NCBI GenBank assembly: GCA_964016885.1
Contig: OZ024745.1
Coordinates: forward strand, 65,720,001 to 65,784,000
Reading direction: 5' to 3'
Length of the DNA: 64,000 nt
Source of the DNA: Eledone cirrhosa
Lineage: Eukaryota
A model generated the notes under the pieces. That model searched no databases, was not told where the DNA came from, and worked only from the letters and a program-made list of their open reading frames with translations. Positions 58,668-64,000 of the stretch are shown here, piece by piece. Position numbers and translations under genes: made by a program. Within the stretch, counting starts at the first letter, position 1. Every line of letters begins with the position of its first letter.

Positions 58668-60812
58668 ATGTAGAGGTTATATTTAATTTGTTGGGATATA
58701 TATATATATATATATATATATATATATATATATATACAGAGATAGAGAGAGAAATTGAGAGACACATACGGAGGGAGAAAATGCTGGAAGCTCAGACGCG
58801 GATAGTGACTAAAACTGCTCTAACTGTTCACACAATATTAGGTAAAATATTACATGTTTAATACTTGATAAGATTGACAAATTCATTTAATTTAACGAAT
58901 AAAGAAATATTTTTTTCTTTAGGATTAAACAAAAACAAATACACCTGAACTTTTCCATGTTTACCTCTTACCTATATATATATATATATATATATATATA
59001 TATATATATATATATATATATACATATATATATATATATATATATGTATTATATGTGTACACACAGACACACACATATATATATATATATATATATATAT
59101 ATATATATATATATATTAAACAATTAATCTCAATAATGACTTACTGTAAAGATTTGAACTTTAATAAATACAAACCACCAGTGAAGTTATTCTTCTCTTT
59201 TTCCAAATACACTTCATTTTAGCATTCTTTTCTCCCCCACATCTCTCTCTCTCTCTTATATATATATATATATATATATATATATATATATATATATATA
59301 TATATATATATATAAATGAGGTAATTCCGTCGGAAAAGTCCAGGAAAAAAGAGTGCTCTATGTAGGTAACAGAGCTTAATTATTATTATTATGTAATAAA
59401 CAACATAAGGCAATTATTCCATTTACCAGTGGTTTTGCTTTCAATCCTCAGAATGAAAACATCCTGGTTTGTTTATTGAATTTGGATTTAAAAAAACAAA
59501 AATGCAATCTATATGAAAGTGAGGCTGGAGAAGGAAGAAGGAAAATAAAAATAAAATAAAACTACACATGCAAACACACACACAAAAAAAACACAAAAGC
59601 ATACATACACACACATATATATATATACATATATATATACAAATATACATATACACATATATATACATACATATATATACACACACACATACATACACAT
59701 ATACACATACATACACTCATACACACACACACACACACACACACACACACACACACACACACACACACACACACACACACACATATACACATATATATAT
59801 ATATATATATATATATATATATACACATATACATATGCATACATATATGTGTGTACAAGCATACACATATACAAACATAGCCATACACACACATATATAT
59901 ATACATACATACATTCACACAATCATACATATATACACACGTACATACATACACATACATAAATGCACTCCTCTACATATTCACACACGCAAATAAATAT
60001 AAAATATATATATATATATATATATTAAAAATATTTGACACCGTTACATAAGGCAGCTAACTGGACAGACACGCGTGGTAAGTAATACACACAAATGCAC
60101 GTATACATACGTACGAAATAGTAAACACATACACACACTCTCACACATAAATATACATATACAAATACATAAACACATACATACACATACATGCACAAAC
60201 ACGCACACGTATACAATATATACACACACATATGTATATGTAATTATATACACACACATATATATATATATATATATATATATATATATATATACACATA
60301 AACACAAACACACACACACAGATATATGTATACATACACACACATAACCATACATAGCTAAACAATTATACACATACAAATACGTACATATCATAAACAC
60401 GCACAACCAAATACACACACACACACACACACATACATATATATATATATACACACGCACATATATATACATATATATATATATACATATATATACACAT
60501 GCATACACATACACACACACATACATGTGTGTATGTGTAAAACTCAGTCTTAGATAATTCATATGAACCTTACATATACATATATATAGTAGTAAAGTAA
60601 TAATGCAACATAAGGCAATTATTCCATTCTACCAGTGGTTTCTTAAAAGCAAAAATTTTTCCTTCAATCTTCAGAATGAAAAAAACCTGGTCTATCCACA
60701 TATACATACATATACACACACAAATATATACATATATATACACATACACATACACACACATACATATATATATATATACATACATATATACATATATATA
60801 TATATACACACA

Positions 60813-61358
60813 AAGATCAGCTACTCTTGTTGCCCATCTATGAAGTCCAAAATCACCAGTTCAAACCGTACGAGGATAAATCCAGGATGCAGTTGCAGGA
60901 AGCCGGATGAATGCCCATTGCAGGGTAAATGTAACACCAAATCTGTCGTTTATGAGGCTAAAATAACACCGGTAATCAACAACCAGCCAGCCAGGAGTGA
61001 GCGATATGTCGGTATGACCCAGGACAGGTTTAAAACCAGATTTTACTCACATGTCGCTTCTTTTAAGCACTCCGATAAACGAACATCAACGGCCCTCGCA
61101 AGCAAGGTGTGGGAACTCAAGGATAGTAACATCCCGTACTCTATTGATTGGTCTATATTAGACCATTCGAGGGAGTACCAAAGGGGCACAAATAATTGTT
61201 CTTTGTGCACCACAGAAAAGTATAGGATTTTGCTAAACTTGAGAGCCACTTCCGCTTGCCTTAACTCAAAGACTGAGATCTTCAGATGCTGTCCTCATCT
61301 GAAATCGCATCTGATCTGTAACTGGATTGACACTCCTATGATAAATCGACCGCCTTGA
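60813..61358 (+). pseudogene. PLE linker Zn-finger + GIY-YIG endonuclease (uninterrupted, 5'-truncated)
   Basis: KISYSCCPSM...CSCRKPDECPLQGKC...VVYEAKI...YVGMTQDRFKTRFYSH..SF...VWELK...IDWSIL...CSLCTTEK..I...LNSKTE...CPH. The N-terminal part of ORF 60603 is read-through from the inverted arm. Confidence 0.9.
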
Positions 61359-61680
61359 ACTCCTTCTCTGCTCTTTACTTCTGCTACGGTTGTTATTTTG
61401 CTGATTCTACGTTCTGTACTCTTGTATATTTACTTATTTTTTTCTCCCTTACCTCCCCTTATATTTCACCTTTTCTTATGTGCCCCCCCCATATATTCTT
61501 TTTGCCCTGCCCTTCACATACCTATGTGTATGTGTATGTATATTTGTGTGTATATATATATATATATATATATATGTATATATGTATATATATATATGTA
61601 TGTGTGTGTATGTGTATGTGTATATATATGTATATATTTGTGTATGTATATGTATGCATATGTGGATAGACCAGGTTTTT

Positions 61681-61739
61681 TTCATTCTGAAGATTGAAGG
61701 AAAATTTTTTTGCTTTTAAGAAACCACTGGTGAATGGAA
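61681..61739 (+). ncRNA. Hammerhead module 1 (GUG, probably inactive here; inverted sister at 60622-60680 retains GUA)
   Basis: ttcatt CTGAAGA ttgaagg...cttttaa GAAA ccactgg TG aatgga. Confidence 0.6.
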
Positions 61740-62900
61740 TAATTGCCTTATGTTGCTTTATTACTTTACTACTATATATATGTATATGTAAGGTTCATAT
61801 GAATTATCTAAGACTGAGTTTTACACATACACACATGTATGTGTGTGTGTATGTGTATGCATGTGTATATATATGTATATATATGTGCGTGTGTATATAT
61901 ATATATGTATGTGTGTGTGTGTGTGTGTGTATTTGGTTGTGAGTGTTTATGATATGTACGTATTTGTATGTGTATAATTGTTTAGCTATGTATGGTTATG
62001 TGTGTGTATGTATACATATATGCGTGTGTGTGCGTTTGTGTTTATGTGTATATATATATATATATATATATATATATATATATAATATATATATATATAT
62101 ATATATATATATATATATATATATATATATATATATATATATATGTGTGTGTGTATATAATTACATATACATATGTGTGTGTATATATTGTATACGTGTG
62201 CGTGTTTGTGCATGTATGTGTATGTATGTGTTTATGTATTTGTATATGTATATTTATGTGTGAGAGTGTGTGTATGTGTTTACTATTTCGTACGTATGTA
62301 TACGTGCATTTGTGTGTATTACTTACCACGCGTGTCTGTCCAGTTAGCTGCCTTATGTAACGGTGTCAAATATTTTTAATATATATATATATATTTTTTT
62401 ATATTTATTTGCGTGTGTGAATATGTAGAGGAGTGCATTTATGTATGTGTATGTATGTACGTGTGTATATATGTATGATTGTGTGAATGTATGTATGTAT
62501 ATATATATGTGTGTGTATGGCTATGTTTGTATATGTGTATGCTTGTACACACATATATGTATGCATATGTATGTGTATATATATATATATATATATATAT
62601 ATATATATGTGTGTATATGTGTGTGTGTGTGTGTGTGTATGAGTGTATGTGTATATGTGTATGTATGTGTGTGTGTATATATGTGTATGTATATATATGT
62701 GTATATGTATATTTGTATATATATATATATGTATATATATATATGTGTGTGTATGTATGCTTTTGTGTTTTTTTTGTGTGTGTGTTTGCATGTGTAGTTT
62801 TATTTTATTTTTCCTTTCCTTCTTCCTTCTCCAGCCTCACTTTCATATAGATTGCATTTTTGTTTTTTTAAATCCAAATTCAATAAACAAACCAGGATTT

Positions 62901-62960
62901 TTTCATTCTGAGGATTGAAAGCAAAACCTTTTGCTTTTAAGAAACCACTGGTAAATGGAA
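62901..62960 (+). ncRNA. Hammerhead module 2 (intact core, GUA site)
   Basis: tttcatt CTGAGGA ttgaaagcaaaa cc ttttgcttttaa GAAA ccactgg TA aatggaa. The inverted sister at ~59417-59459 has an internal deletion. Confidence 0.85.
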
Positions 62961-64000
62961 TAATTGCCTTATGTTGTTTATTACATAATAATAATAATAT
63001 ATATATATATATATATATATATATATATATATATATATATATATACATATATATAGAGAGAGAGAGAGAGAGAATTATATATATACATGTGTGTGTGTGT
63101 AAGCGTCTTTATTTGATTTTCTCAGTCAGAATATTTGTTAGTATTCAGTCTCTTTCATATAGTACTATTCTTTTATTTGGTAGCGGTCTCATAGCACATT
63201 CTGAGAAATGTGCTGCGATTATCAAACTTCCTACCTCATTGCCTTCTAGTAAATTAGTATTATATTATGTCTTGTATTGCATAAAATTATGATTATATCA
63301 CGTACTGCTTGGCTAAGCACGAACTTTCTTATTTACAAAGTAGAAGATTGCGAATTTAATATTCTCATTAAATTTGCCAACAGGATTATGAAGTAAACAC
63401 GGTTTATTTTCTTTTGGCTATTTATACATAATTATGCACTGATTGCTTTTGAATAAATGACAACTAACTCACTGTATTTTGAAAATGTTCATCCAAAAAT
63501 GTTCAGGTTACCAAAGTTGATTTTTTATTGTATTTCGGTTTATAGCTCTATCCAATAGTAGATTCAACTACAGTTATAAAGTGGAATGAAGATAATAGAA
63601 TATATATAAGGACCAGAAATATCCATTCTTCTAGCCTGTCAACTTGACACTCTATCAAATGCTTGGTGAGTACATTTTCTGTGGTTATTGTGGAGATATA
63701 TTTCCTGTATAGTTCTGAAATTTAACTGTTATATTTAACTAATTTTAATTAGTATTTTTCTGACGATTTACGTTGGTTATAATGATGAACGTAAGTCACG
63801 ACTCGTGACTCACGAGGATATTAATACTTGATTTGTATTACATTGTTCCATTATTATCTCGTTTTATTTCATATTAGAAATCCATTTACAGTTGAGAGTC
63901 GAATCATAATAATATTCAATTTCTGCAGTTTAGAAAATAAAACAAAGTGGAAAGGAAACGGTCCCCCACAGATACCCGCTCTCTTAGCATGGATTTAATG

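Follow-up and report, generated by a model that had tools for sequence, protein, structure and literature searches.

Near the right-hand end of a 64,000 nt stretch of the Eledone cirrhosa genome (assembly GCA_964016885.1, contig OZ024745.1, positions 65,720,001 to 65,784,000 of the forward strand; hereafter the window, whose first nucleotide is position 1) lies a hairpin of about 3.7 kb, tail included, derived from a Penelope-like element (PLE). Its two inverted arms, at 59379–60814 (minus strand) and 61543–62998 (plus strand), align with 1352 matches, 19 mismatches and 12 gap events (98.6 % identity), which bears out the inverted arms of ~1.45 kb reported in a preliminary description of the window. 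Between them stand a 181-codon open frame and a pyrimidine-rich block. The right arm ends without a tail. The left arm, a 5′-truncated inverted copy of the 3′ untranslated region (UTR), continues outwards into a tail at 59312–59378 (minus strand), which follows the terminal ribozyme and corresponds to the first ~65 nt of the 5′ UTR of the family (95 % match to the 5′ UTR start of the full-length copy L031; L numbers are our handles for loci); the preliminary description overlooked this tail and began the element at 59379. Microsatellites flank the insertion, (CT)n(TA)n on the left (59243–59311) and (TA)n(GA)n on the right (62999–63076). The inversion junction was first described as an AAA microhomology at 60812–60814, but comparison with other copies, which have gtagtt or gtactt ahead of AAGATC, reduces the overlap to AA at 60813–60814; two or more nucleotides are shared in 19 % of random junctions (P=0.19), and the overlap looks like chance. 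The locus is probably a 5′-truncated, head-to-head double insertion of a young PLE of the Hydra clade into (TA)n, likely laid down by two reverse transcription events primed from both ends of one cut.

The 3′ UTR occupies 1,640 nt (61359–62998, plus strand), beginning with the pyrimidine-rich block and passing into TA/TG microsatellite-like sequence, and it carries two hammerhead ribozyme folds, which were read by motif and folding. In the right arm the cores of these modules, at 61687 and 62908, lie 1,221 nt apart, in agreement with the ~1.22 kb noted previously. Module 2 (62901–62960, plus strand) is a canonical type I hammerhead with a 7-bp stem I, CUGAGGA, an 11-bp stem II, GAAA, a 3-bp palindromic stem III of the dimer type and the cleavage triplet GUA at 62953; the fold lies within 0.5 kcal/mol of the minimum, and we infer a working ribozyme. 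Module 1 (61680–61739, plus strand) follows the same plan, but has G at position 17 (61732). Both ribozymes of the left arm are damaged: module 2 (59417–59458, minus strand) is broken by the loss of 18 nt of stem II, and module 1 (60622–60681, minus strand) has gained one base at its cleavage site. The two hammerheads per arm that had been proposed are thus present as four modules, of which only the right module 2 is an intact canonical hammerhead. In Rfam, nothing in the window reached the gathering score, and a search of 59300–63100 at E≤10 returned no hammerhead but matches to microRNA models, driven by microsatellite sequence.

The stop-free frame between the arms was also confirmed, at 60813–61358 (plus strand). 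Homology and motifs identify it as the last 181 codons of a 710-aa open reading frame (ORF), comprising the end of the thumb, a CxCx5C linker and a GIY-YIG endonuclease without CCHH but with CxxC and CxH; the reverse transcriptase (RT) has been cut off, and because of this the copy is dead. An ATG at 60603, an allele absent from the right arm, is in frame with the endonuclease, as had been pointed out, and extends the frame to 251 aa (60603–61358, plus strand) with every endonuclease motif intact. The suggestion that the inversion had thereby made an expressed RT-less endonuclease gene is, in our judgement, scarcely credible. The 70 added N-terminal codons are antisense module 1 and microsatellite, copies truncated to this length all have a native ATG already (60840 here), an upstream methionine in frame is found in 8 of 29 other copies too, and with divergence at ~1 % an intact frame is to be expected. 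Moreover, RNA transcribed across both arms would fold into a 1.4-kb duplex. The fusion looks like a chance by-product.

Full-length copies, which the preliminary description had proposed to seek, were found. The endonuclease fragment has at least 150 matches in the 3.0-Gb genome, at 96–100 % amino acid identity, and a complete frame of 710–718 codons stands behind the same start in 13 of the 20 long-frame loci that were fetched. A full copy consists of a pseudo-long terminal repeat (pLTR, with module 2), a 180-nt 5′ UTR, the ORF, a 3′ UTR of 1.5–2.4 kb with modules 1 and 2, and an optional tail. The RT lies N-terminal to the endonuclease (YRDD at 346 and GIY at 574 of 710), and the ORF stops after the endonuclease. 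In an alignment of 119 proteins (the query, a sister family and 117 of the 120 listed homologues), RWK (R37-W38-K39) and DKT (D114-K115-T116) are kept in 118, and the motifs typical of Hydra elements, among them the linker (C555/C557/C563), CxxC (C658/C661) and CxH (C689-H691), in 116–118. The GIY-YIG-type motifs VVY..YVG..R..H..E..N are conserved throughout, and CCHH occurs in 0/119 (0/119 with two cysteines between GIY and YIG). An alignment-based structure model reached a predicted local distance difference test score (pLDDT) of 93.8 and had telomerase RTs as its best matches, which, together with the RT and GIY-YIG ORF of the full copies, upholds the assignment to PLEs; the single-sequence fold, with a pLDDT of only 35, was not used. 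Neither the 181-aa nor the 710-aa protein matched any Pfam family and a sequence search of the PDB returned nothing relevant, so the endonuclease call rests on the motifs and on a published alignment (PMC8557442; this and the other papers are cited for the sections drawn on).

The preliminary description called the element Naiad-like and treated the CxCx5C linker as a Naiad hallmark, but the two clades had been swapped. Hydra elements are defined by CxCx5C, RWK, DKT, loss of CCHH, CxxC/CxH, hammerheads and (TA)n targets (PMC8557442). The present family shares all of these, with a C-terminal GIY-YIG domain and a type I hammerhead with a short palindromic stem III; it also shows PLE traits such as pLTRs from partial tandems, inverted 5′-truncated copies and a tail at one end. 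Module 2 has GUA in 43 of 44 copies, and 113 of 126 sampled termini adjoin (TA)n of at least three units. From its sequence features the family is a Hydra-clade, endonuclease-bearing PLE. Naiads resemble it in their PLE-type RT, (TA)n bias, tandem and inverted structures, tail and high copy numbers, but have an N-terminal endonuclease with CCHH, CX2-5CxxC, CxC and DKA, and no canonical hammerhead in the sections of PMC8557442 cited, and none of this fits here. A Naiad identity is ruled out because the endonuclease is C-terminal and hammerheads are present, module 2 in canonical form; DKT, CxCx5C and the absence of cysteines between GIY and YIG point the same way.

Judged by eye, Hydra-1_Obim is the closest described family, with 709 aa against 710 here and a collinear sequence over ~400 published residues (PMC8557442). 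Our family differs from the Hydra families listed there in unit length (3.8–4.7 kb compared with 1.1–3.0 kb), a consequence of its long 3′ UTR; the shortness of Hydra elements in general (<3 kb) is described as a trend and is not diagnostic (PMC8557442). Its tail is longer (~65–75 nt compared with 30–40), and its microsatellite-rich 3′ UTR of 1.5–2.4 kb is unlike those described. The listed families have one sense hammerhead position each, none with G at the cleavage site in the material cited, whereas here a second, internal G17 hammerhead is present. Although its architecture was already known, the family is a new variant in that its long microsatellite UTR contains a G17 hammerhead acquired by self-insertion. 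The family is active. A sister family in the same genome (L081–L102; 70 % amino acid identity, 719-codon frame), apparently also recently active, has a 1.3-kb low-complexity UTR, a ~80-nt tail and a single hammerhead, spelled differently but on the same plan. As a side observation, the homologues numbered 1,342, and those listed lie mostly on contigs of 2.2–3.5 kb; the Hydra clade must therefore be far larger than the 27 families listed in PMC8557442.

The hairpin is one of very many. An exact 44-nt module-2 pattern had 3,347 genome matches (0 for the reversed control), so that the genome holds at least 3,347 3′ ends of the family. Pattern counts gave 2,455 tailed ends and, on the forward strand only (the reverse count being inflated by overlapping matches), 2,681 tail-less ends adjoining (TA)4, from which we estimate ~7,800 ends. 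Among the first 100 module-2 matches, 44 sit in 22 head-to-head pairs, 70–6,344 nt apart, and 2 pairs are direct. The family thus forms inverted pairs routinely, and for PLEs both truncated copies in inverted orientation and a tail on one side only have been published before (PMC8557442; PMC3846280).

What the pairs of this family add is a count. In a first sample, exactly one arm was tailed in 22 of 22 pairs (21 of them independent, two being one duplicated locus), the left arm in 11 and the right arm in 11. In a second sample, taken from 40 tailed ends elsewhere, all 24 visible inverted partners were tail-less (P about 1e-4 under the genome-wide tail-less share); the other 16 loci, with no scorable partner end within 7 kb, were not counted. 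Pooled, 46 of 46 sampled inverted pairs are one-tailed, as are 4 of 4 in the sister family. Neither arm is consistently the longer: it is the tail-less one in the window (by 728 nt) and at L037, L044, L137 and L138, and the tailed one at L050, L133, L136 and L144. In 10 of 10 long pairs the arms are each other's closest match (98.9 % compared with 93.7 % for the pair in the window). We found no paper on a two-hammerhead Hydra UTR or on a counted one-tail rule, in a literature search that covered largely open-access material, mostly as listings.

This one-tailed architecture, which recurs in the 46 sampled pairs, in the four of the sister family and in other families in the window, also disposes of the suspicion that the arms are an assembly artefact produced by read fold-back. 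Short-read contigs do not span the junction, as that idea would have it, but the arms differ by 19 substitutions and 12 indels and only the left one is tailed. We give the idea next to no weight; the hairpin is real, and such hairpins are ordinary for PLEs.

Our data are consistent with a model in which an RT-endonuclease, probably acting as a dimer, nicks both strands of the target. One target end would prime at an RNA site ~65–75 nt into the repeated 5′ UTR and so give the tailed arm, and the other would prime just past module 2 and give the tail-less arm. Both cDNAs, most likely copied from the same RNA or source locus, would stop early and join in antiparallel orientation with little or no homology, after which each would template the second strand of the other. 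A Poseidon protein, predicted to be a dimer, cuts both strands in vitro and extends them, beginning at two neighbouring RNA sites that bound the tail (PMC11167929). The inverted-pLTR insertions of Penelope and Poseidon (PMC3846280; PMC11167929) are the closest parallel, though they belong to a different clade, and neither a counted asymmetry (46/46) nor a longer arm of either kind, as seen here, is reported in the sections of those papers cited. Twin priming of the L1 type was rejected, as both arms repeat the same 3′ end.

Several points weigh against two-ended priming. No strand difference in start site was seen in vitro (PMC11167929), and for that reason the rule of one site per end is one that we can only infer. 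L039 and L032, two loci selected by their ORF, are tailed on both arms. The nearest-neighbour margins are small in the youngest pairs (1.000 compared with 0.999), only 10 pairs were compared, and an identical pattern would arise from gene conversion between arms. The locus itself is known from the assembly; short-read contigs and restriction-site-associated DNA (RAD) reads carry the family and module-1-type sequence without spanning the junction. Lastly, about ten short pairs are near-perfect palindromes with spacers of 0–4 nt, which also fits fold-back or self-priming, the origin proposed for the palindromic junctions of Penelope (PMC3846280). Were the inverted arm made in that way, from a single cDNA or an antisense template, one tail per pair and near-identical arms would be expected as well. 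However, when a cDNA is copied back, the tail-less arm cannot come out longer than the tailed one, nor can a tail appear that the first cDNA lacked, and because the tail-less arm is longer in the window and at L037, L044, L137 and L138, fold-back is ruled out for those five loci. As a general explanation of the inverted arms we consider it improbable; the short symmetric palindromes may have arisen by it. In many short pairs (L053, L067, L129, L134, L135, L140, L178–L181, L187, L192, L211 and L212) both arms break off 110–140 nt short of the 3′ end, where the stretch preceding module 2 is locally palindromic and may be a hotspot for RT stops or fold-back.

The microsatellite character of the 3′ UTR, like the hairpin, belongs to the element. 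Perfect dinucleotide repeats make up 15 % of the UTR, and alternating purine–pyrimidine sequence 47 %, compared with 7 % and 9 % in the rest of the window, and it holds nine (TA)n tracts of at least six units. The preliminary description regarded this sequence as part of the element on the grounds that it is mirrored in both arms, and the same sequence is present in family copies elsewhere: the landmarks U2, U3, U4 and U5 and both modules follow the ORF in most of the 20 long-ORF loci, although some miss single landmarks and L032 and L045 are rearranged. The further proposal, that the element both targets and carries microsatellite-like DNA, also holds, given the (TA)n-adjoining termini counted above and the use of its sites by younger copies. 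Nested insertions into the (TA)n of the UTR recur (L168, L186 and L032), and therefore the element lays down its own targets, one self-insertion having become part of the lineage. By our own estimate, the family contributes about 1–3 Mb of microsatellite (~700 copies reaching module 1), less than 0.1 % of 3.0 Gb, so that its share of the microsatellites of the genome is small.

That self-insertion is module 1. In the window it survives as the relic of a nested insertion of ~100 nt, at about 61668–61775. Older copies, with ORFs 90–93 % identical to those of young copies, share the UTR landmarks but lack module 1 (for example L104, L106 and L110), and the sister family has one ribozyme only. A landmark just downstream of the module 1 site gave 30 matches, in 26 of which the upstream sequence is (TA)n alone (for 6 of these the ORF-proximal UTR could be seen as well); the other four are three module-1 precursors and one independent young insertion. 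Precursors carry GUA and end exactly as a tail-less terminal insertion does (L114/L167, L227, L228, L219 and L240). Among the early-type matches, 30 of 95 were read and 28 proved to be module 1, with G in 23, A in four and C in one at position 17. A tree built from the endonucleases of 68 copies, with the sister family as root and 6 copies of unresolved module state left out, places copies without the module first, then GUA, then a GUG clade (support 99). Pooled, position 17 is G in 79 of 85 copies of module 1 and A in 43 of 44 copies of module 2, and the G form of module 1 has 691 genome matches. These comparisons of copies show that module 1 was a short tail-less 3′ end of the same family, which inserted into the UTR's own (TA)n tract and then became part of the element, and that the order was empty site, then GUA, then GUG, with A-to-G among the first changes fixed. 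The change must have been early because some G copies keep the old base at position 7 and the old flank. A17G may have silenced internal cleavage, by which the ORF would be severed from the priming end.

This history has its own weak points. A single copy represents the GUA stage of the tree, and three copies, two nested ones with GUA and one with GUC, look like reversions. Selection on A17G is read from the order of events only, and hitch-hiking is possible. In addition, the fold positions of module 1 vary less than their surroundings, at 2/36 compared with 15/59 shared variants (P=0.011), which a pure relic does not predict.

The same observation lends some support to the idea that module 1 is kept as a non-cleaved helper, its core cutting the GUA of module 2 within a single transcript whilst its own G17 site stays closed. 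The short palindromic stem III is of the dimer type (PMC4209133), the positions that a helper would need are those 36 that vary so little, the free core position 7 has changed twice, and a module 1:module 2 double hammerhead can be drawn at −25.0 kcal/mol. However, the contrast in variation is not significant against non-repetitive UTR controls (2/36 compared with 28/183, P=0.09), and the search anchor overlaps part of the 36 positions. Fifteen genome matches have a broken module-1 core, including several full-length loci that share the change, and a loop-III change that weakens the heterodimer is found in 35 of 85 copies. The heterodimer lies 5 kcal/mol above the co-fold minimum, which is module 2:module 2, and neither the older copies nor the sister family had module 1 when they spread. 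On balance a helper role seems doubtful.

If not as a helper, module 1 might act as a ribozyme in its own right. The preliminary description proposed that both modules cleave and release a ~1.2-kb microsatellite RNA able to circularize in the manner of a retrozyme. Two hammerhead folds do stand in tandem 1,221 nt apart, both sites were canonical at the GUA stage, and non-LTR retrozymes (see also PMC7229834), which likewise have type I hammerheads in tandem, have been proposed to derive from PLEs (bioRxiv 2026.07.22.740005). Module 1 is nevertheless predicted from its sequence to cut poorly. G17 strongly impairs minimal hammerheads (PMC3884650; the rule is also given in PMC3064770), although four tertiary-stabilized G17 hammerheads still cleaved, 8–100-fold more slowly, and kept ligation (PMC3884650); metazoan PLE hammerheads, which are of the dimer type, are weak in vitro even when canonical (PMC4209133). 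At this locus, moreover, the arms would pair with each other. A retrotransposed circle would leave chimeras or 1.2-kb arrays, but the chimeric module 2/module 1 junction was found in none of 221 contexts in 246 loci (the one pattern match, L116, is a tailed module 2) and in none of 16 genome-wide matches, and no same-strand spacing of ~1.2 kb occurs among the first 100 listed matches of either module. Unlike in retrozymes, then, no tandem array or circle-junction copy was found, one of the two sites is G17, and the unit lies within the UTR of an autonomous element. Because module 1 has G17 in 79 of 85 copies and junction chimeras are lacking, we think double cleavage and a 1.2-kb circle very unlikely.

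A more far-reaching combination of these ideas would have self-insertion and site closure build an asymmetric double hammerhead that cuts the 3′ end without a tandem partner, and every inverted PLE insertion record a dimeric RT loaded on two start sites of a single RNA. We put this forward as a speculation, and a doubtful one.

Other families have left hairpins flanked by (TA)n in the window too, and three of these are one-tailed. Short inverted hairpins of another family, in (TA)n and with a one-sided tail of ~75 nt, lie at 34543–34830, 51117–51417 and 46791–47124. A third family accounts for 45408–46780, in (TA)n, with 428-bp arms that are 98 % alike, a spacer of ~440 nt and a one-sided tail, and its ends also lie beside L037, L044 and L146. 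A near-perfect 456-bp palindrome at 7241–7695, whose arms hold a motif like a minimal hammerhead (CUGAAGA, a long stem and GAAA), is probably another PLE end, and further palindromic or nested inverted repeats adjoin (TA)n at 58554–58666 and 16159–17040. At 51807–52277 (plus strand), a 156-aa frame with a GIY-YIG-like pattern and cysteines between the motifs looks like a canonical PLE endonuclease in broken form, and this sequence also interrupts the L110 UTR. Finally, 25588–26655 and 30108–31280 hold a tandem repeat, degenerate and open over long frames on both strands, and a direct duplication of 546 bp at 96 %.

The origin of the inverted ends and tails of PLEs, and the role of their hammerheads, are described as still open questions (PMC8557442). 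The value of the present locus lies in its family and not in the hairpin itself. The family obeys a near-strict one-tail rule in which either arm may be the longer, as two-ended priming predicts, with one target end presumably priming at each RNA start site, probably on one RNA, before an antiparallel join. A counted rule of this kind is a useful handle on the PLE mechanism, testable in the existing in vitro assay. The family also preserves a stepwise record in which a ribozyme was duplicated by self-insertion and then changed to G17, an order of events that suggests, short of proof, that cleavage matters in vivo. As it multiplies, the element spreads its own target sites.

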